DNA of 59,633 bases, filler included, from Circinaria calcarea (Eukaryota), in the NCBI GenBank assembly GCA_051942165.1. It is 9 parts of 9 records of this genome, joined end to end, with 100 filler letters (N's around TTAATTAATTAA, not from the genome) between each part and the next. Parts side by side here need not be neighbours in the genome. Positions count along the whole stretch, not along the records: positions 26,573 to 33,111 come from JAVECS010001560.1; 8 more parts are not named here. One strand, 5' to 3'. Numbering within the stretch: position 1 is the stretch's first letter; each line of letters opens with the position of its first letter. Both the position numbers and the translations under genes were made by a program. Positions 6,549-54,670 of the stretch are shown here, piece after piece. The notes beneath the pieces were generated by a model that was given only the letters and a program-made list of their open reading frames with translations, made no database searches and was not told where the DNA came from.

Positions 6549-6648
6549 NNNNNNNNNNNNNNNNNNNNNNNNNNNNNNNNNNNNNNNNNNNNTTAATTAA
6601 TTAANNNNNNNNNNNNNNNNNNNNNNNNNNNNNNNNNNNNNNNNNNNN
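6549..6648. other. Artificial contig linker (N44-TTAATTAATTAA-N44)
   Basis: Identical 100-bp spacer with stops in all six frames. Confidence 0.99.
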
Positions 6649-7431: not shown

Positions 7432-8842
7432 TTAGCTCCTTGTCTTGACTACTAGCCCGGTCTTGGCGATCCGAGCAGCACCAATGATAGCCGATGATGC
7501 TAAGAGCATCACACCACACCAAATGATGAGGCCAACCCAATTCTGAGAGCCCCCAAGAATGACTCCAGCAACCGGCCCACCAATGAGTACGCCAAATCCG
7601 ATGAAAGCAAAACTCATACCCAAACGAGTGCCCAAAACCCTCTTATCAAGTGACACGCTAGCTATAACTGGAATAGGTAGAGATACAAATGGTCCAGAGA
7701 AGAAACCATAGAGCGTGGTGAAAGCTATAACAGCGCGGGATGTCTTGATAGCCAGCAGACAGAAAGATAGTATCCCCGTTGCAACACCGAAGAAAACCTG
7801 TGTGTTCATAGGTCCAAAATAGCCAGCGGCATAATTGGGCAGAAGGCGACCAAAGAAGGAGGCCGCATTTAGGATTGCAAGAAGATAGAACGCAAGGCCA
7901 GGCTCAGTACCAGTAACTTGGATAGCATAAAGTTGGATATAGTAGTATAAGACATAGAGACCCAAGAAACCGATGAAAAAGCCAATACAGGAAAGCAGGT
8001 ATGGTACGTCTTTGAAGGCGTGAAGGTCGATCAAAGCACGTCTCGTTGCGGAAGGCGGGTTCCGTAGTTGCATAAGGGCTACTGCAGGCAGCATGGTACC
8101 GAGGATCATAAAACCCATAATACGAACTGTCCAACCGAAGCCAATTCGGGGGGTAAGCTGGTTCAAGAGTATAGGGTAAATGACAGCGCCTAGCCAACGG
8201 TGAGTAGTGTTCATTCAAGGAGGTAATTCTACAAGACTCACCAATACTAGATCCCGTAGTTGCGATGCCAACAGCGAAGGAGTTCTTGGTAGAAAACCAT
8301 TGAGGCACAATTGCGGAAGCTGGCATAAAAACAAAACCAAATCCAACGCCCACTACGATTGCCTGGGCGAGAAAGAATTGCCAATAAGTGTGGCAAAGAC
8401 TTAGCATCATCATGCCGAAGACGCTGACGACAATGCCGATGACGAGGAGGAAACGAATATGACCAGCGTCCCAGATAGGCCCGGTGAAGATTGTCGTAAC
8501 ATAGCAGAGGAGAAACTGAACGGAGCCAATCCAGGAGATATTAGAGGAGGATTCGGAACGGAGGATATCTATCTCGTAAATGGTCTGAAACTGTCCATAC
8601 GTGTTGAGAATACCGAGAACGTTGAAGAAGATCAGCCAGGAACAGATGACTTGCACCCATGCCGCAAGACCTCCGTCTGGGGGAGGTTTGGGTGGCATGG
8701 GAGAAGATGTCGAGTTTCCATCGCGTGGGCTACCATGCTCGAGGGATTGTAGCGGAAGAGTAGATTTCTCGCGCGTCTTCGAGGTCTTTGGTGCAATAGA
8801 AGTATGTGAACGCTCTCGGCTAGACTCTTTTTCGGACATCAT
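7432..8842 (-). CDS. MFS monocarboxylate (MCT-family) transporter; one intron (8190-8241)
   Basis: PPDGGLAAW, ISWIGSVQ, QWFS, GSSIG|GAVIYP, GTRLGM motifs; about 12 hydrophobic segments; two ORFs joined by a GTGAGT..CTAG intron. Confidence 0.92.
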
Positions 8843-9212
8843 CTGAATAACTTTTCAATTTTAGGAGAGAGAGTACTTTAACGGCGTAACGACTTAGAAA
8901 TCTGTAGAAATGGTCCGACAGTGCTCGGGGAGATTTTGGCGAAGAGAAAGGTCGACAAAGGATGAGAAGAAGGCCATTGTGACGTGACGGGTATAGGGAA
9001 ATAAGAAGTGAGCTCTAACTCCGCACATAGGGCTGTGGTCGGAGATCTTCCGAGGTCCGAACGCGGGTAGATAAGGGACTGTCGATCTCTCGGAAAGCCC
9101 ATGCGATGCTACTTCGGCGCTGGAAAAGGATTCGGACCATCCCGAATCAAACATTATTCCCGAATCCAACGACGATCTGTTACGACAGTTAACTGTATCC
9201 ACATAAAATGCG

Positions 9213-9751: not shown

Positions 9752-11528
9752 ATGATGTTAAACAATTTTGCCATGCCTGACGCCTCTCATATGTCTACTA
9801 CCTATCTTACTGCGATTTTGACGATTTCTACATTCGTATGGCTGGCCAAAAATCGCTTCAACAAGGGCCTGAACAAGCTACCAGGTCCCTACCTTGCTTC
9901 TTTAACTAACTGGTGGCGTCTATTCTACGTTCTTGTTGGCCGACGCCAAGATCAAGTTCAGAACCGTCTCCACGAGCAGTACGGAGACGTAGTCCGGTAT
10001 GGCCCTAACATCGTGAGCTTTGCAAACCCGAAGGCGATTAAGGATATATATGGAATTGGTAAACCTTTAACCAAGGTATGCCTGATCCGCAAGTACTTGG
10101 CTGGCTACTTTTCAAGACTAACCAGCCGCTTAGTCGGAATACTATCTCCCTTCGCAAGCCATGAGTCAAGGCCGTGCCATGCCAGCGCTCTTCACCATGC
10201 TCGAAAACAAGCCTCACGCTCAGCTGAAGCGCACCCTTACGAGTGCTTTTAGTGGGTCCTCTATCGTAAGTCTCGAGCCACTTGTCGACCCGGTGATCGT
10301 ACGGTGGGCAGAGCAGACAAAGAAGATCTATGTTGAAACAGGCCAAGTCTGCGACTTTGGTCTCTGGCTACAATTCTTCGCCTTTGATGTGGTCACAAAC
10401 CTTACGTATAGCAAGACGCACGGCTTTGTTGACCAACATAAGGATGTGGACGGGATCGTTGCCTGGCTCGGCTGGATGTTTAGCTACACATCTGTCGTAA
10501 GTGCTCTCTTCGTCTTCGGCGTCAAAGGAGCGATTTTGTTATCCTAATCTCCTCATCTAGGTGGGCCAGATTCCTTTTCTCGATCAGTTGCTCAATAAAA
10601 ATCCCATTCAGCGCTTTCTGGAATGGACGGGTCTCAGCGCACCCTGCTTCCCGACGGTAATCTTTGCCAAAAAGCGCATGGCCGAACGTACCTCCACCGA
10701 CCCGGCCCTTATCCCCACGCAATCAGGCATGCGTCAAGATCTCCTGACGCAACTCATTCAATCCGGCAAGCAACATCCAAAAGTCCTTACGGATAAGATG
10801 ATCCTCACCACAGCAGTCAGCATCGCCTTCGCTGGCTCAGACAATACTGCCGTTACTCTATCCGCCATTTTCTACTATCTTCTCAAAAATCCCCGCACAT
10901 ACCGAAAGCTGCTAGCGGAACTTGATGACGCTGCTGCTCATGGCCGCATACCTACCGATCCATCCACCCTCATCACCTGGGAGCAAAGCCAAGCCCTCAC
11001 CTACTTCAACGCGGTGGTCAAAGAAGCTATGCGCCTGTACCCCTCTGTGGGCGGCATCCTCGAGCGTGTCACCCCGCAAGGCGGCGCGGAGATCATGGGA
11101 AAGTGGTACCCAGGTAGTACTATTGTCGGCTGTAACGCATGGGTAATACACCAGCGGCAAGAGGTATTCGGCAAAGACGCGGCCGACTTTAGGCCGGAGC
11201 GGTGGATCGACGGTGATCCCGATACGATCAAAATGATGAACAACAACTTCTTCGCATTTGGAGCCGGCAGTAGAGCTTGCCTCGGGAGGAATATCAGCCT
11301 GTTGGAAATTGGAAAGGCGGTGCCGGTGTGGCTGCGGATGTTCGATGTGTGTATATCACTTTTTTTATCTTGTGTGTATGGAATGCTGATATCGTGGATG
11401 TGTAGATTACACTTGCGGATCCTGACAAGGAATGGACAATCCACAACTCTTTTGTCGTCAAGCAACACGACTTTAATGTTCGTTTTACAATGAGGCAGTA
11501 TAATCGAAACGAGAAGGAAAAAGCGTAA
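9752..11528 (+). CDS. Cytochrome P450 (pisatin-demethylase-like group); 3 introns (~10076-10133, 10496-10560, 11348-11405); true start may be 9773 or 9791
   Basis: N-terminal TM + LPGP; YGDVVRYGPN; FFAFDV; I-helix AGSDNT; EAMR; PERW; heme motif FGAGSRACLG. Confidence 0.93.
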
Positions 11529-13190: not shown

Positions 13191-13290
13191 NNNNNNNNNN
13201 NNNNNNNNNNNNNNNNNNNNNNNNNNNNNNNNNNTTAATTAATTAANNNNNNNNNNNNNNNNNNNNNNNNNNNNNNNNNNNNNNNNNNNN
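13191..13290. other. Artificial contig linker
   Basis: N44-TTAATTAATTAA-N44. Confidence 0.99.
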
Positions 13291-13401: not shown

Positions 13402-13844
13402 TGTTATGGCGCCACGTCATATCCTAATTAACTAAGGGCCGGAACGGAGGAGCACAGGGGCCGGGTGCTTCTAGTGCTCCCAGGGCTTGGCAGCAGGAAC
13501 AACAGGAGGAGCATGTGATATGCTCTGGGTACTCCGGGTGCTTTGTTATGGCGCCACGCCATACTCAGGGTCCAGGACCAATACGGACTAGGAAGGTTCA
13601 CTCACGTGACTGAGCAGAGTGAGCAGAGTGGTGCTCCAAGTGCTCGGGATACGCAGGCTACTATATATAGCAGGCTATTTCCGCTCTTTAAAATAGTATG
13701 CTTATAGAACCATAACGAGTTCAATATACTCCTTTTATATTGAGTTTAGGGCAATAATTCAACTATACCTTATATAATCGTGCTGTCACCAATCGGGACC
13801 TATTATATTCCTCAATAGGCCCCAAGGATTGTAGCGCCCTTACA
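13402..13844 (+). mobile_element. Solo or compound LTR (family copy 1)
   Basis: Starts TGTTATGGCGCC (repeated at 13544) and ends CCCTTACA; TATA box; 3' 175 bp shared with 50165-50339; flanks CTTAC/CCCAC could be a RIP-altered 5-bp TSD. Confidence 0.8.
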
Positions 13845-14074: not shown

Positions 14075-14576
14075 TCACTCTATATAGATATAACCTTGCG
14101 ACGTTTGCCAGACGCCTTAACGACGCCCACGCTGCCTCTGCTTCCTGCGCCCCTTTGCGCTTTGGTCGAGTTGATGCCACTAGCTCCTCTATACCTTCCA
14201 CCCTGTTTACTTGCGCTTCTGCCTCCTCCTCCGCCTGCTCAACTGCGTCCTCCTCCGCCTGTCCGACTGCGTCCTCCTTCGTCTACCCGACTGCGTCCTC
14301 CTTCGTCTGCCCGACTGGCTTCTCGCTCGCCTGCCCAACTGCCTCTTTCTCCGCCTACCTGCCTGCGTCCTCGCCCGCTTCCTCTGCCGCCTTCCTTGCC
14401 CGTATTCGCTCTGCCCGATCAGCGAGGAACTTCTTGAACTTGGGAACTGGGTCGTCTGGACGAGAAGAACGAGGAGGAAATATCGACGGGTGCGTCGGTG
14501 ATAAAAAAGGGGGGTGCGTGGCTGATACGGTAGGGTGCGTGGGAGAAGTGAATGGCAAAGTAGGGGTGCGTGGCAA
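14075..14576 (-). pseudogene. RIP-damaged ORF with 24-bp (EEDAVGQ[A/T]) repeats, probably a transposon protein relic
   Basis: Frame KFLADRAERIRARKAAEEAGEDAGR*AEKEAVGQ..TKEDAVG*TKEDAVGQ. The TAG stops sit where sister repeats have CAG; flanks are very AT-rich. Confidence 0.6.
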
Positions 14577-19831: not shown

Positions 19832-19931
19832 NNNNNNNNNNNNNNNNNNNNNNNNNNNNNNNNNNNNNNNNNNNNTTAATTAATTAANNNNNNNNNNNNN
19901 NNNNNNNNNNNNNNNNNNNNNNNNNNNNNNN
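19832..19931. other. Artificial contig linker
   Basis: N44-TTAATTAATTAA-N44. Confidence 0.99.
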
Positions 19932-26472: not shown

Positions 26473-26572
26473 NNNNNNNNNNNNNNNNNNNNNNNNNNNN
26501 NNNNNNNNNNNNNNNNTTAATTAATTAANNNNNNNNNNNNNNNNNNNNNNNNNNNNNNNNNNNNNNNNNNNN
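26473..26572. other. Artificial contig linker
   Basis: N44-TTAATTAATTAA-N44. Confidence 0.99.
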
Positions 26573-27137
26573 TTGCAATATACCATCCCAGAATGGTGAT
26601 GGGCTGCGCCCTGGAAAAAGATAATCGACGCCCCATGTTGAAGAGTAGGGCGATGTTAGCGACAATTGCAAATATCAAGGACACGACATTGACAGCAAGC
26701 AACCTGTAATCCATTTCTCAGTATCTAATGTTGATCTGAGAGGTGCTTCACATACCAAATTGGATCTGGAACGTCGATTCCATGCGCCTCCGTACCTTCC
26801 AAGGGGATTATCAATCTCCAATGCTCAGAGATAGCACATATGTTGAGAGCACTTGCCATAGGGCCGAAAGTACCCTATTATCCCTCGTCAGCACTATCCT
26901 GAAAACATAAAAGTGAGTCGATACCTTACGGCCAGTAACGGAAATATCGTTTTGAGGAAGAACCATCGACTGCAAATGCCGATTAGAAGGTAACTCGTCC
27001 TCTTCAGTGGACATAGCGAACCTAGGGTTCAAGAACTCGTCTGTCTCCTCACCGTCTTCATCTTGGGCCCCAATACCAGTCTCCCGGTTCACGGTGTCGG
27101 CATCGACATCAATGGCTCCATCAAGGGGGTCGTTCAT
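26573..27137 (-). CDS. N-terminal part of a fungal tandem-pore (TOK-type) K+ channel; 3'-truncated
   Basis: Spliced: RWFFLKTIFPLLA|GTFGPMASALNICA..WR..PDPIW|LLAVNVVSLIFAIVANIALLFNM..RAQPITILGWY. Pore domains lie beyond the contig. Confidence 0.75.
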
Positions 27138-28228
27138 CCTGACTGCTATGGGGCTGAGGACGTGACTGAGGTCGTTATGGCTGGTGGGAAATTCACTAAC
27201 GACTCATTGAGAACAGCAGGTAGAGCAACGGTTCGTAAACAAGAGTGTTTGAGTATCGCAAGGAGAGAATGGTCAGTCGTACTATGGAGGGGGTTTTGCG
27301 ATCATCCCTTCTCCGCATGGGCTAGAGAAACCAAGCTTTTTCTAGTGAAGTTTCGAGCTTCACAAATTCTTACCAGTCCGTACAGAGTACAGATAGCTTG
27401 GGCTAGAATCTTTCACTAATATACGTATCATACAGGGTTAAATACAAGAGCTTGACCTGATTTCTCGATCGCGCTTCGATATATTTTCAGAACCTTTGCC
27501 ATAAACACCACATAGAGAAAAGACTGGTGTCTTCGCGAAGATATCATGCGGTTAAGAAAGAACTATCAGCTGTATCAGAAATATGTTTCTGCCGCTAAAT
27601 ATACTATACCCTGCCAGTAATAAAAGCTGCGCTTTACAAGGACCCATGAATGCCACCAAGGATTCTAGCCCGAGCTGTCTGGGATAAACACGGCACTTGC
27701 GACCCAACAGTAAACGCTCTCGCATATTGTGGTCGCAGGCATAATGCCGATCCCGATCAATCCTGGTATTCCCAACAAAGGCTGTATAAATTCCCCGAAA
27801 GAATGAAATGTAACGAGAGTATCCTCCGACGTATGTTCCAGCTGTCTGTTTGAAACCCAGCTGTCGTTTGGGCCTTCCATGATTATTGCAGATGAACCAC
27901 GCCAACATTTATTATGCCTGCGACCACAGTAAATGTTGGCTGCCCTGATACATACTGGTCATAGCTCAGGGCCTAAGCCTCACCCTTTATAGAATAGCTC
28001 CGCTCTAAATGAACTCTAAAACGAAGCTTAAGATGATAGGGGTCCGCCACCATGGCACGTGCCTGGCAGTAACGTCGGTGAGAAAACGATTGTTTTCGAT
28101 CTTCGATCATATCTACCTATCTTGTGTACCTATTTCGCTTTGTTATGGTGATTTATATGGTAGCTTTACTGATACAACTTCTATATTAACGCTCCTGGCA
28201 TTTTAGACCAAGGTTTCCAAACAACGTA

Positions 28229-30294
28229 TTACCACGCACCCCCACCGCCGCCCGTAGCAAAAGGACTTCTTTGTCTCAGCCTCTGGCCATACTTCCACAG
28301 CAATACAGGGGCCGGTAGACCCAAGAATATGGTCATGACACTACTATCCCTAGCCATAGTCCAATGCCGAATACATGTAAGGCGCAGCTAGGGGAAAGCC
28401 AAAGCCTGCCAAACTTCGCAGAAATGTCGCTGCACCGATTGCTGAGGCGGCATATCGGGTGTAAGCATCGACGATATATGTCTGAATGCACTGGAATCCA
28501 ATTATTCCACTGGCTGCAAATATCGTAGCTCCGATGTTCGGGACAATCCAATGAGTTTGCTCTTGCGCGGACCAGCCGTAGATGAAGAGCCCGATTGGCG
28601 CCAGGAAACTACCAGGAACCATAATAGGAACACGAAATTCAGTTTTGCCAACATTATTGTTCTTTCGAGACAGCCGCTTGCATACCCGATCGTTGAGGGG
28701 TGCACATATCTGAGTTCCCAGGAAGAAACCTAGGCCAAGACTGATGTAGTTTAAGCTGCCGATGCCTATAGACTCATGATATCGCTCCGCCCACAAAAGA
28801 GGGAACGTGGAGAGGACCAAGTATATGAGTCCGTACAGATAGGCCATGTAGACTGCAAGTGCTTGCACTATCGGCTGTGTTCCCAGACGTATAAATGGGC
28901 ACTTGAAGCTTCTTTTCAGTATATTTGCCGCGCTTCTTTCAGGATGTTCGAACTCAGTCTTCAGTTTCTTATTACCGGTCTCCTTTCCTAGTTTCTCGGC
29001 TCTATAGTGGAGAAGCTTGGGTGGGTAAGTTTCACGAAGGAAGAATAATCCAAAGACTTGAATGACTGCGTCGGCAATCGAAACACTCCAGAACGCCCAT
29101 CTCCATGTAGTGCGTTACGTGATGAATCCACCAGCTATAGGACCGATGGCTAATAGAAATGTTAGTATCTAAACTAAAAATAGAATTGAAGAAGGGGGGG
29201 GGGGTGCTGTTGTTTCGATCATATTCCTTACTTGGACCAAGTAGAGGGGCCAGACTGTAAACTGAAACCGCAAGCCCGCGTTGTGTTGGCCGCCAAACAT
29301 CCGAAATGACCCCTCCACCAAACTCATTACCGTCAGTCACTACTTTCAAAGGTGTGGGGAAGGAGGGCTTCTCACAGCTAGTGGAGCACTTCCCCCAAGG
29401 CCGGACAAGAACCGAAATGCTATCTGTCAAGAATAGGGGTTCTACACTACGTGGAGGAACTAGTATTCGGAGCGGTTAAACTAACCACCGAACGCGCACA
29501 TAGCAGAGGTTTTCTGCTATGCAGTTCCATAGTGAAGTCCATACATATAGAGTGGTAGTTACCATAGCCAATACAGCCTATTTCACCTTGTATTACCATC
29601 CGTTATTTCACACTATCATCCCCCCCTTCTTACTAAACCCACAGGCGATGTTGAAGACGAGGAGGAATAGATTCGACAATTGTAGAACAGGCACACGCCC
29701 ATAAATTTCGGAAAGGGGCCCGATAATCAATGGGCCAACAGCATAGCCCAAGACGAAGACGCTTAGCACGGGTTGCTGTTCCACCTCATCGGTAATGCCA
29801 AAGTCACGCGAAATCGAAGATATGGCAGGAGCCACCATTGAGGATGATACCGGCGAAATGAATGTAGACGACGAGACTACGACCACCGTCGCCGCCGACT
29901 TCGTTTTCATTGTCCAATCAAAGGGGCTTTCGGGATCATCCGGTCCATTCCATATCACCAGATTAGGATCCTTAGGTGGTTATAAAGACTTCTTCTTTTC
30001 CAAGGGAGTATCTCCTGCCTCTAAATCCCTCTCATCCGGCACTCTTATTCGCACCTCACTTTGCACTGCTGTACTCTCCTTTCTTGCTTCTTCGTCATCT
30101 TCGGATTGAAGCTCTTCGAAAGTCCCCTCATCATCATGGAACCTTGACTCAATCTCTTGATGATATACCGAAGTATCGTCCAGATGTTGTCCAGTATGTA
30201 CACGGGTGAGAGCTGGTTCAGCTAATCGGCTACCATTGGAGCGGGCAAAGTTAGCTCAAGTGGGCCTTGGGGGTGCAGAAGCTGAAGGGCGTAT
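28229..30294 (-). pseudogene. DHA1-family MFS drug:H+ antiporter pseudogene
   Basis: WNGPDDPESPFDW, GPLSEIYGR, WRWAFW, RETY motifs. Stops at 29980 (TAA), 29115 (TAA) and 28350 (TGG>TAG); 3' frameshift; apparent ATG>ATA start; LTR insertion. Confidence 0.88.
29425..29612. mobile_element. 188-bp solo LTR with perfect 5-bp TSD (CTATC) inside the MFS pseudogene
   Basis: CTATC|TGTCAAG...ATTTCACA|CTATC. Removing it plus one TSD copy restores GMIAFRFLSGLGGSAPLA. Confidence 0.88.
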
Positions 30295-31105
30295 GAGCGT
30301 AAGTTCGTATTAAGGCTAGGAATCCTACCTTAGCGATCTAGGTTGCCTCAAAGTCCTGAGATATTACCTTTGACATTCCCTTGGCAACAAAATAAACAAA
30401 AAGGAGGACGGTCTCGGGTACTGCAAAGGTACATTCATACATGCGCACGTCGGCCTCTATCTTATAAAACCGTGACGACTTGACAATGATAAATCCAAAG
30501 TTGATCACCAACGAATTTCGCGAAGGCGATATACATATTTGCACCTCGGCTTCAAAGACCTTAACACCGGGGATGAGAAGAAAGTCGATGACGTCAAAAA
30601 TTAACGACGATCCTCAATCGGCATTAGCTCACACCTAATCGCTCCTATTAATTAGAGTAATACCTGAAGTTAAGAGCGTTTCTACATTGATTTATTGTGA
30701 CTATGTAAGAGTTGCACACCATCTTCCAAGTAGAACACCAGTACAGCAACGTCCGCAGCGAAGAGCTGCAAATCAAATTGCGATTAATATTGCTAGAAAT
30801 GCTAGTCACAACACTACTGATGAGTAAAAAACTCATCGCTAGATACTTTCTAGATTAAAGTAGGATGATTCAGCTGTAAAGTGTATCCCGTTCTTTGTAC
30901 CATGTTTGTCATTCCTGATTGCAAATCCTTACGGGATGCTTGGTAATTCACCAAGACTTTAGCGAGACTCAAGAGAGCATATAGAGGCACGAGAGGACCT
31001 TCCGGAGGATATAAGAAGGAAAACACGGAGAAAAAGTCGACATACGCTTTGAGGAGACATAACTTGAGAAAGACACATACGCATATATTTGTAGCCTACA
31101 CTCAT

Positions 31106-31844
31106 ATGGCCGATCCATCGTCCTACAAATTTCCCTCACCTTTAGAAGGCTTCGAAAAGCTGCCACCATTACCTGAGTCAGTGAGCCGGGGCATTTACAT
31201 TTGAAACTTCAACGCTGATTGGATTTAGTGAGATCGTGACCACTGACCCGGGACAAAAGAGCTATGTAAACCCGGAAACTGGCATACGAGGTCAGGCATA
31301 CAAGAGATTCACAGACCCGATTGCGAATGGTGACAAGAACGGATTTGACATTCATATCTACTTCAACCAGGCAAGAGATCCACCAGTTGTTTACCAGTGT
31401 GATTATTGACGACGGAAATCTAGGGCAATCAAGAACAGATAAAGTTCGCAAGAGAACTTTGGGAGCGTATTCGTCGGGAGTGTAGGTACCTTCTCCCTAG
31501 AACATATTTATTCCAATTTCTCACCATTCCAAGTCCCAGAGCTCCGTATCTATAAGCTATGGGAACAACCGATCGGTCCACACATCACAGGAATGTTTGA
31601 GGTAGACCTCTTTACCCCAGACCAATTCGGGGCTTTTATTCCATGGCTTGTCATCAACCGAGGACCGCTGAGCGTGTTGGTACATCCCAATACAGGTGAC
31701 GAGGAAAGAGATCATACGCAAAGAGCAACGTGGATGGGTGAAAGACTGCCGTTAGATCTGACACCCTTAAGGAAAATGATGAAGATGAGATCGAAGGTCG
31801 AGAAGCTGAAGGCGGACCAGGACGCACAAGGCTCGGGGGAATGA
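31106..31844 (+). CDS. DOPA 4,5-dioxygenase family protein; 3 introns, one probably GC-AG
   Basis: FPSPLEGFE.LPPLP, FDIHIYF, RIRREFPELRIY, PIGPH, MFEV, WLVINRGPLSVLVHPNTG..DHTQRATWMG. Confidence 0.9.
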
Positions 31845-32625
31845 AGGAGTGTTCTATGAAATTGACGCTTCACTTCTCCTGTGCTAAATTATCAGAAGCT
31901 TCATCAAACACTGATAGAAATTTGACCGTTTCATCTGTGAGAATATAACCTATGCCACCTATTTCAGATGTCGGATCTTGTGGTTAAGGAAGCCATAATA
32001 GGAGAGTAAGGCTCTACAGACTTAAGTAATGTCCAATGATCTCGTAGAAACCATGTAGAAACTGAGCGTCAAGTACTGTGGTAGCAAGCATAATAGATGT
32101 TAGCGCGAGTTTCGACCCACGCCGGTTCACTCAGCAAGGCTGTGTAAATTCTTAGAAAAGGAAGGTGTAATATGGAGGGTATCCTGCGGTGTATATACCA
32201 AATTTCTGCGTGAAATTAAATTGTCACTTGGGCCTCAAATAGTTATTACCTGGGAACCACGCTAACACCTATTGTGCCTGCGACCATAGCAAGTATGTCG
32301 GCCAGCACGCATTCGGTCTTGGCAAGCCCTGTACCATAAGGCAGGTAGCCCGAGTTGGGGAGATTAGCCCGCGCTTACTCTATGGAGCACTATCTGAACG
32401 CCTCTCCTTTCAGCTGGGGCTGGAGGCTGGGGGCCGCAACCCCCAGGTAAAAAGATGGTAGACTAGCTACTCTTCTCTTAATCTTACATGCAGGGTAAGA
32501 CGTAAGACTTTTCCCAGATCTCAATCTCACCCGCAATAGAGCAGAGCCTAGTCCGAATACTTCCAGCTTCCAGTTTGTCAACTCGCTTTTTATGACTGTC
32601 TGAAGTACGATCCTCCTCTACGGTC

Positions 32626-33111
32626 ATGTCGCTGTTTGTCCACGATACTCGACGTGGACGCAGTAAGTCTCCTGGCCGTGAACGATCGCGCTCTCGATCT
32701 GCCAGACCGTCGTCTCCACCTCAGCCAGTGCGATCTTCGAAGACCAAGAAATACTACGAAGAAGACTCGAGCGAGGAAAGCAGTGACGGCGGCAGAAAGC
32801 CTCGTTCTTCAAGGCATAGACACGAAGGACCAAGATATGCATTAGCTGAGCCCAAGCATAGGCGTACTTCCTCACCAGTCAAACATTCCACGACTCTTAC
32901 CCGTCAGGATAAACACAGTGATCCGCGACATGAATACGACCATCGAGAGGGCAGACGCGCCAGCCATGTGGAGCCTGCTCGACATGAGCAGGAGAGGCCA
33001 ATTGAGTATACACGGCATTCGAGCTACAGCAGGGCGGACGAGCAGCCTCACGTAACGGCTACCGCAGCTCCTACCTATGCACCCCCGGGCCAATACAAAT
33101 GGGAGTATGAC
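32626..33111 (+). CDS. N-terminus of a large Arg/Ser-rich protein, probably annexin ANXC4-like; 3'-truncated
   Basis: MSLFVHDTRRGRSKSPGRERSRSR resembles fungal annexin C4 N-termini (from recall); annexin repeats are not in the window. Confidence 0.5.
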
Positions 33112-33211
33112 NNNNNNNNNNNNNNNNNNNNNNNNNNNNNNNNNNNNNNNNNNNNTTAATTAATTAANNNNNNNNNNNNNNNNNNNNNNNNNNNNNNNNN
33201 NNNNNNNNNNN
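33112..33211. other. Artificial contig linker
   Basis: N44-TTAATTAATTAA-N44. Confidence 0.99.
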
Positions 33212-38977: not shown

Positions 38978-39497
38978 GGAAATATGCAATTTCATACCCC
39001 AGCCCCAAATTCTAGTGATTAACCTTCTGTTAGTGCAAGGTGACTATTATTAAAATCACTACGGAAGATCGCTGTCATTGCCGTAAAGACCTATTATCGC
39101 AGAGGTCACTGTCGCAGAGGTCACTGTCGCAGAGGTCACTGTCGCAGAGGTCACTGTCGCAGAGGTCACTGTCGCAGAGGTCACTGTCGCAGAGGTCACT
39201 GTCGCCAGTGGCATTGCATAATAGCATTGCGATAGTGGCATTACGACACACTGGCATTGCGACACACTGGCATTGCGATATAAATGCGAGAGCGACACAG
39301 TGCGACAGCGACCCACTGAAAACCGCGATAGGGAACTTAGCCTATTAACCTCCGGCCGGGTTCTTAGGCTAATACCCTCCTGACAGTAGTGTGTTCTTCG
39401 GGGTACCCCCTGAAATTTGGGGGTGGGGTATGAAATTGCAACTTAGGGTATGAAATTGCATATTTCAAACTCTTGGGGTATGAAATTGCATTTTTCC
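38978..39497. mobile_element. ~520-bp non-autonomous DNA element (MITE, Mutator-like termini)
   Basis: 23-bp TIRs GGAAATATGCAATTTCATACCCC / GGGGTATGAAATTGCATTTTTCC (1 mismatch); TIR core tripled at the right end; no TSD found. Confidence 0.7.
39097..39201 (+). repeat. Perfect 15-bp minisatellite (TCGCAGAGGTCACTG) x7
   Basis: Seven identical units followed by degenerate TGGCATTGCGA repeats. Confidence 0.97.
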
Positions 39498-39747: not shown

Positions 39748-39847
39748 NNNNNNNNNNNNNNNNNNNNNNNNNNNNNNNNNNNNNNNNNNNNTTAATTAAT
39801 TAANNNNNNNNNNNNNNNNNNNNNNNNNNNNNNNNNNNNNNNNNNNN
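39748..39847. other. Artificial contig linker
   Basis: N44-TTAATTAATTAA-N44. Confidence 0.99.
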
Positions 39848-46381: not shown

Positions 46382-46481
46382 NNNNNNNNNNNNNNNNNNN
46401 NNNNNNNNNNNNNNNNNNNNNNNNNTTAATTAATTAANNNNNNNNNNNNNNNNNNNNNNNNNNNNNNNNNNNNNNNNNNNN
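46382..46481. other. Artificial contig linker
   Basis: N44-TTAATTAATTAA-N44. Confidence 0.99.
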
Positions 46482-49940: not shown

Positions 49941-50339
49941 TGTTATGACGCCACTACCATATTAGGGGGGAGGTTAGCTCCGGAACGGGGTAACCTTGGA
50001 CCGGATAATCAGTAGCTCATTGTTATGGCGCCAGCACAATGACATGTACTAGGACCCAATCGGGACTAGTGTCGGAGCGGAGTAACCCTACGCCGCTTGC
50101 TCAGTATGCTCAGTGTGCTCAGTAGATGAGCAGAGGTGAGCAGGATGAGCAAACATATATATAAGCAGGCTATTCCCGCTCTTTAAAATAGTATGCTTAT
50201 AGAACCACAACGAGTTCAATATACTCCTTTTACATTGAGCCTAGGGCAATAGTTTGACTACACCCTATGTAACCGTGCTATCACCAATTGGAACCTATCA
50301 TATTCCTCAATAGGCCCCAAGGATTGCAGTGCCCTTATA
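49941..50339 (+). mobile_element. Solo or compound LTR (family copy 2)
   Basis: TGTTATGACGCC at 49941 and TGTTATGGCGCC at 50021; TATA box; 3' 175 bp match 13670-13844; terminal CA is TA here. Confidence 0.8.
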
Positions 50340-53007: not shown

Positions 53008-53107
53008 NNNNNNNNNNNNNNNNNNNNNNNNNNNNNNNNNNNNNNNNNNNNTTAATTAATTAANNNNNNNNNNNNNNNNNNNNNNNNNNNNNNNNNNNNN
53101 NNNNNNN
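53008..53107. other. Artificial contig linker
   Basis: N44-TTAATTAATTAA-N44. Confidence 0.99.
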
Positions 53108-53171
53108 GTGTATGCCTCGCCACTCGCAAGGAGACTCCCGAGCGAGGTCGGACTATCGTATCCCGGCAGCA
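53108..53171 (+). repeat. 64-bp exact direct repeat of 54040-54103
   Basis: Identical sequence GTGTATGCC...CCCGGCAGCA; the copy is cut by the contig start. Confidence 0.95.
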
Positions 53172-53927: not shown

Positions 53928-54670
53928 CTACCCATCTCGACTGTCTCCATCCCTTGAGATATCCAAAATACAGGACCCATCCGGCGGAAGTGACAAGATT
54001 ATTGTATCTGCGATCGATTCAGAAGCACTGTCATCTGTCGTGTATGCCTCGCCACTCGCAAGGAGACTCCCGAGCGAGGTCGGACTATCGTATCCCGGCA
54101 GCATCTTGGAGATGACAGAGACTGGTAGAATTACTCCAAGGCTCTCCAGGGTAGCTTGGAGTTGTTCGAAGGCCGTTTGCTTTAACTGCTCCTCTCCTTC
54201 GTTTGTAAGGATGATACTCTGTTCGTGCGCGGCAAGGCTTTCGATGGTCAAGGGAGTGGCGGCGGGAAGTAGGTTGTCTTGGTTGGGAGCTCGAACGACA
54301 TCATCGGCGGTATAGCGAGCCGAATCGTCTGTAAGACTGCTCGGGGCGTTGTGGGTTTGGTCGGTGAAAAAGGAGGAGCCTCGCGAATCTGCCGGTAGTC
54401 TACGTAGTAGAGATCAGCGAAAGAATAATGGCAATAACAAAACTAACAGGTATATGGCTGAGTCTCCTCTTCCAAGAGAAATACTCCAAGACCAAAGAGA
54501 GAGTCCATAGGGTTGGGTGTGGGAGACAAACGACAGAGCTGCGGGGGAAGGCTGTTTAGGGCAACCGCCTCCCGACCGGGAGTCTCTACTTACACTTCAG
54601 AAACCGGGGTGACGCCGGATGGAACATGACTGTCTATCGGTACTTTGGTTCTCGCGTTTTGGAAAGACAT
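53928..54670 (-). CDS. Hypothetical 182-aa protein, paralogue A (intron 54400-54593)
   Basis: 77-nt exon 1 (MSFQNART..), GTAAGT..GCTGAT..TAG phase-2 intron, open exon 2; similar to 56165-56879. Confidence 0.62.

Follow-up and report, generated by a model that had tools for sequence, protein, structure and literature searches.

A 188-bp element that interrupts a multidrug-transporter homolog is probably an ordinary insertion of the solo-LTR type into what is now a pseudogene, and the GT and AG dinucleotides at its borders are most simply taken as incidental. Nothing indicates that the element is used as an intron now or was used as one earlier. Its borders read GT..AG because the target site happened to have the form G-N-N-N-G and the element ends in TG..CA. 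All positions refer to the window, i.e., the whole 59.6-kb stretch of DNA that was analyzed, and the features discussed are collected in Table 1.

TABLE 1 Coordinates of the insertion, the candidate interval, the host gene, and the linkers within the window
Feature	Position	Strand	Basis
Inserted element, 188 bp, TG..CA ends, likely solo LTR	29425..29612	. (ends same on both strands)	Sequence
Upstream copy of target-site duplication, GATAG on the minus strand; last G is the G of the candidate GT	29613..29617	-	Sequence and homolog alignment
Downstream copy of target-site duplication, GATAG; first G is the G of the candidate AG	29420..29424	-	Sequence and homolog alignment
Candidate GT..AG interval, 190 nt, GTGTGA...TTGACAG	29424..29613	-	Sequence; removal in frame on paper
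Host gene, MFS (DHA1-type) multidrug-transporter homolog, now called a pseudogene	28247..30303	-	PF07690; homologs; tblastn
In-frame TGA, N-terminal region of host gene	30256..30258	-	
In-frame TAA, EKKKSL-stop-PPKDPNLV	29980..29982	-	
In-frame TAA, GGFIT-stop-RTTWRW	29115..29117	-	
Three in-frame TAG, DYG-stop-G-stop-stop (one at 28350-28352, two in 28341-28346)	28341..28352	-	
Natural host intron, 53 nt, donor GTGAGA, CTGAC branch 10 nt from terminal AG	29323..29375	-	Exon ends by homolog alignment
Natural host intron, 82 nt, donor GTAAGG, CTAAC branch 12 nt from terminal AG	29150..29231	-	Exon ends by homolog alignment
Artificial linkers	6549-6648, 13191-13290, 19832-19931, 26473-26572, 33112-33211, 39748-39847, 46382-46481, 53008-53107		

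Insertion site and target-site duplication

Across the site, the minus strand reads ...AAG GGG GGG ATG ATA G/TGTGAAATAACGG...CCCTATTCTTGACA/GATAG CA TTT CGG TTC... (slashes mark the borders of the element). The element itself runs from TGTGAAAT to TTCTTGACA, i.e., it has TG..CA termini. The GATAG repeat on its two sides is perfect (5/5) and exactly 5 bp long, with different bases before the two copies (T versus A) and after them (T versus C). When six homologs were compared with the region by tblastn, the same residue closed one alignment at about position 29614 and opened the next at 29423 in every case, and the single isoleucine of each homolog matched both ATA copies, the proteins being collinear through the site. 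Because all six homologs place the same residue on both sides, the 193 extra bases represent a real insertion with a duplicated target. The element is therefore a clean insertion with a target-site duplication. The earlier note had described just such an insertion, with TG..CA ends and flanking duplications, at 29420..29617; its coordinates and letters are correct to the base, and the perfect GATAG copies and the uninterrupted homologs agree with its description.

A homolog search with the longest open piece of the host gene returned 1,466 proteins at an E value of ≤0.001 among 2,943 candidates, and the motif counts given here rest on the 120 of these matches that were listed. The motif F[RK][FL]..G directly follows the insertion site in 114 of the 120. 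The commonest forms among them, KGEMIA/FRFLSG (14 proteins) and KGQMIA/FRFLSG (13 proteins), agree with the reading of the window before the insertion, ...KKGGMIAFRFLSG. The best named matches among those listed belong to lichen-forming ascomycetes, with 73 to 78% identity.

Were there no insertion, the extra sequence would have to be an assembly artefact, or else an unusually long native loop or intron that contains a direct repeat by chance. The window is stitched together from pieces with artificial linkers, which calls for caution about the assembly, but the nearest linker is ~2.8 kb from the element. Neither an artefact nor a chance repeat accords with six of six homologs running collinearly across the site with exactly one residue duplicated, or with a perfect duplication that adjoins TG and CA ends, and we find this explanation scarcely credible.

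The eight linkers look artificial, each consisting of 44 N, TTAATTAATTAA, and another 44 N, and they recur at a spacing of ~6.64 kb. The window seems to be composed of nine pieces joined by a six-frame-stop spacer, so that genes on different pieces need not be neighbors. The true genomic context of the insertion is limited to positions 26573 to 33111.

The interrupted transporter gene

The host gene is called a pseudogene because six in-frame stops lie outside the element (at 30256, 29980, 29115, 28350, 28344, and 28341), its frame is shifted, and no evident start codon was found for it. The earlier note had cautioned that the gene contains other stops, a caveat that these six codons confirm. 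The first TAG of the cluster of three replaces a conserved Trp, and the frameshift falls after this cluster and before position 28324. Together, the insertion and the stops show that the transporter homolog in this region is nonfunctional.

RIP is not an obvious source of the stops in the host gene, for which both RIP-type indices are normal (0.85 and 1.18).

The gene content of the window is otherwise typical of an ascomycete. It includes a GH5 cellulase with CBM1, an aldehyde dehydrogenase, a P450, an FSH1 hydrolase, an acyltransferase of the trichothecene-3-O-acetyltransferase type, an SNF2 helicase, a DOPA dioxygenase, a GH47 protein, a septin, an SDR, and a BBE oxidase. A second MFS gene is located at 7435-8854.

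Nature of the 188-bp element

A retroviral-type integrase classically leaves TG..CA ends and a 5-bp duplication where it integrates an element, and with a length of 188 bp these features form the textbook signature of a solo LTR. The element combines TG..CA ends with a duplication in the 4- to 6-bp range at a site that is uninterrupted in relatives, and other element types do not explain it, as it has no long inverted repeats, no poly-A, and no tRNA-derived head. These structural features make it likely that the element is a solo LTR. It resembles ordinary Ty1/copia or Ty3/gypsy solo LTRs in its termini, its 5-bp duplication, its length of no more than a few hundred bases, and its noncoding nature; in the window, neither a partner copy nor an internal gag-pol region was found with it.

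The GC content of the element is 43%. Its longest perfect terminal inverted run is 3 nt, and a repeat search reported no terminal inverted repeat and no internal direct repeat of >8 nt within it. Neither a poly-A tail nor coding capacity was found in the 188 bp. An ungapped comparison of the first 40 nt with the reverse complement of the last 40 nt gave 19 matches of 40, where ~10 are expected.

The main rival to a solo LTR is a short non-autonomous element of another integrase-type family, i.e., one that has TGT..ACA ends and generates 5-bp duplications. A Ginger-like DNA transposon, with its integrase-related transposase, could for instance have given rise to a miniature derivative of this kind. 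A DNA transposon type whose transposase is related to retroviral integrases is mentioned in PMC12130899. The TGT..ACA ends suit such an origin, the number of terminal inverted matches is above chance and could reflect a degenerate inverted-repeat element, and neither an LTR-retrotransposon gene nor a second LTR lies nearby. Against this stand the 3-nt limit of the perfect inverted run, the negative repeat search, and the combination of length, TG..CA ends, and 5-bp duplication that is expected of a solo LTR. We therefore regard a non-LTR element as unlikely and retain the solo LTR as the preferred assignment.

Three further candidates were rejected. For a SINE or another tRNA-derived origin, we found no matches to Rfam families at E values up to 1 in the region 29100-29950 and no tRNAs in the window. 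A structured RNA was rejected on the basis of folding, the 190-nt interval folding no better than shuffled sequences (z = -1.19). A complete miniature LTR element was rejected for want of an internal direct repeat of >8 nt.

By the usual index thresholds, the dinucleotide composition of the element is RIP-like, unlike that of the rest of the window (TpA/ApT = 1.5; [CpA + TpG]/[ApC + GpT] = 0.83). Both indices were as extreme in only 0.4% of 1,208 control windows of 188 nt. This composition fits a repeated element.

A blastn search of the 59.6-kb window with a word size of 7 matched the element alone and revealed no second copy. No reverse transcriptase, integrase, or gag domain was found in the 146 ORFs of ≥90 amino acids in the window. 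Public collections were scanned with a pattern composed of the two 11-nt termini of the element separated by a gap of 151 to 181 nt. The pattern matched two metagenome loci, one locus on a genome contig of a bacterial MAG, and no viral contig locus. All three loci were rejected as copies of the element; they match it only at the 11-nt ends, as chance would allow for 22 specified bases. The plasmid collection, which is not relevant to an element of this kind, yielded no matches.

A dispersed repeat of ~182 nt is present at 13662-13842 and 50156-50337, with 89.6% identity between the copies and differences that are mostly transitions. It has no clear TG..CA ends and represents another short repeat family in the genome.

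The candidate GT..AG interval

On the sense strand, the candidate GT occupies positions 29613-29612 and the candidate AG occupies positions 29425-29424. Like a U2-type intron, the 190 nt that they bound have GT and AG as their 5' and 3' terminal dinucleotides (GTGTGA...GACAG). Joining position 29614 to position 29423 gives GGMIIAFRFLSGLGGSAPLA (also as GGMIIAFRFLSG), which is an open frame; removal of the interval in silico yields M-I-I-A-F-R, in frame, with a gain of 3 nt and of one Ile. Without splicing, the reading frame ends immediately (GGMIV-stop, with the TGA at 29610-29608). Ten donor/acceptor pairs at and near the borders were tried, and the proposed pair alone left the frame open. 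The arithmetic of the earlier note, which had a GT..AG interval of 190 nt, a 3-nt gain, and one extra Ile, is confirmed by the translated join. The frame of the 3-nt gain follows automatically, because the duplication is 5 bp long.

Such borders are easily come by. GNNNG accounts for 99 of the 1,709 sense-strand 5-mers of the host gene (5.8%) and for 6.3% of the 5-mers of the window, and the GT..AG coincidence is cheap because ~6% of 5-mers have this form. The GT..AG borders look like no more than chance would give, i.e., a one-in-sixteen by-product of the target site.

Splice signals and the intron reading

The earlier note went beyond the arithmetic and proposed that the solo LTR and the two duplication Gs form, or once formed, a GT..AG intron of 190 nt that is removed by splicing. 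In that case, the insertion would have been nearly harmless, costing one extra Ile, and would illustrate a route to intron gain. In favor of this proposal, GT and AG fall at the exact borders and the join is in frame. The candidate donor (ATA/GTGTGA) keeps the +1, +2, and +5 positions, and a similar donor, GTGTGT, may serve the P450 of the window. The insertion could also have been tolerated as an intron before the host gene died. Precedents exist in print: an acceptor composed of an LTR terminal A and a duplication G has been demonstrated experimentally (PMC6238269), and solo-LTR introners have been reported (PMC12130899).

The internal signals of the interval argue against splicing. The fungal branch consensus is CTRAY, and splicing generally favors the first AG that follows the branch. 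The only YTRAY motifs in the interval are TTAAC, 52 nt from its 3' end, and TTGAC, 3 nt from its 3' end, and none was found in the range of 10 to 45 nt from the proposed acceptor. Three AGs (at 29460, 29447, and 29442) fall between TTAAC and the proposed acceptor, and their use as acceptors leads to stops or to the wrong frame. The interval thus has no branch motif at ~10 to 40 nt from the proposed AG without an intervening AG, as a U2-type intron would have. Both natural introns of the host gene have a perfect CTRAC 10 to 12 nt from the AG, and the candidate interval exceeds them in length by a factor of 2.3 to 3.6. The earlier note had itself conceded that the signals are poor, with a weak GTGTGA donor and a distant TTAAC, and we agree.

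The setting of the interval points the same way. Its local join is open, but elsewhere the gene is broken by a frameshift and six further stops, and in a pseudogene nothing can select for splicing. Only 1 of the 10 border pairs was productive, the GNNNG coincidence costs ~6%, and no other copy of the element was found in the window or among metagenome, genome, and viral contigs. Weighing both sides, we consider it very unlikely that the interval is or was an intron.

In the P450 of the window, CTGAT and GTGTAG come after the GTGTGT at 11347 on the plus strand, the three motifs lying within 59 nt (11347-11405), and the Pfam P450 alignment of the ORF at 10561-11490 ends approximately at the candidate GTGTGT donor. 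A role of GTGTGT as the P450 donor, remarked on in passing in the earlier note, is plausible.

Proposed origin of the interrupted gene

We suggest that, in a lichen-type ascomycete, an LTR retrotransposon (or, less probably, another element that a retroviral-type integrase mobilizes) entered an MFS multidrug-transporter gene within the first coding exon. The point of entry lies between the Ile and Ala codons of the conserved ...GMIAFRFLSG..., where the 5-bp target GATAG was duplicated. We infer that recombination between the two LTRs of the element then left a single 188-bp solo LTR. The insert places a TGA two codons into the element and so truncates the protein, and the gene, with its six further stops and frameshift, is now a pseudogene. 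The GT..AG borders on the sense strand would be the by-product expected for ~6% of such insertions.

Relation to known LTR-derived introns

The closest parallel is the Arabidopsis gene CMT1 (PMC6238269). The Evelknievel LTR retroelement lies in exon 13 of this gene, is flanked by the 5-bp duplication GGCTG, and is removed by splicing in three ways. In the splice variant SV2, the acceptor AG consists of the terminal A of the LTR and the first G of the downstream duplication, a GC in the upstream duplication serves as the donor, and the frame is restored; SV2 made up 25% of the events by RT-PCR. Both cases involve an LTR element in a coding exon and a 5-bp duplication that starts and ends in G, and the SV2 acceptor is built exactly as the acceptor proposed here. 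The cases differ in that Evelknievel is a full-length element whose splicing was shown by RT-PCR, whereas the element described here is a 188-bp remnant known from its sequence. Furthermore, the SV2 donor is a noncanonical GC inside the duplication rather than a duplication G followed by an LTR T, and CMT1 is otherwise intact whereas the present host is a dead gene.

Splice-site recruitment from target-site duplications is also a feature of introners and introner-like elements. Donors that span the border between duplication and element occur in dinoflagellate introner-like elements (bioRxiv 10.1101/2020.10.14.339549), and according to a review, the source of splice signals may be the element, the duplication, or the exon (PMC11282704). 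In an introner survey (PMC12130899), LTR retrotransposons represent ~12% of the confidently classified introner families, and solo LTRs are credited with producing functional introns in switchgrass. Its supplementary file 8 tabulates LTR families (LTR/Copia and LTR/Gypsy) with the modes "co-opt both" and "carry 5' co-opt 3'"; among the rows of this file that were examined, there was no fungal or lichen LTR introner. The present element shares with introners, as these sources portray them, the recruitment of candidate splice sites from the duplication. The difference is that introners exist as many similar copies that are introns in expressed genes, whereas the present element was found once, within a pseudogene, and its internal signals are poor. 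Several intron-forming copies would be expected of an introner, and the element is single-copy within the 59.6-kb window.

The earlier note had drawn a general rule from the site, namely, that an LTR with TG..CA ends that lands on GnnnG leaves a GT..AG interval and a 3-nt scar. The arithmetic of the rule is sound, and genomes could be scanned for it, but the principle is not new, as PMC6238269, bioRxiv 10.1101/2020.10.14.339549, and PMC12130899 indicate. The recruitment of splice sites from target-site duplications, LTR elements and solo LTRs included, is already documented, and the TG..CA-on-GnnnG rule follows from the published findings as a minor corollary. We did not find the exact rule spelled out in the literature searched.

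A more far-reaching version would place the 188-bp element in an LTR family with introner activity in this lichen-type fungus. GnnnG copies in intact genes would be spliced at the borders formed by duplication G and LTR T and by LTR A and duplication G, each leaving a one-codon scar, and the copy described here would be a decayed example. We judge this extremely unlikely. If true, a simple sequence rule would make LTR-driven intron gain predictable in an ascomycete. New knowledge would come only from showing that the element family makes working introns in a fungus. As found, the site has little wider significance, being a further case of a decayed gene scarred by a retroelement.

Other repeats in the window

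A perfect direct repeat of 64 nt is present at 53108-53171 and 54040-54103, i.e., 932 nt apart. Its first copy starts directly at a linker, and the repeat may therefore be longer or may reflect the cutting of the pieces. Two tandem repeats were also detected: a 15-nt unit in ~9 copies, 5 of them perfect, at 39082-39220 and a degenerate 24-nt unit at 14195-14386.
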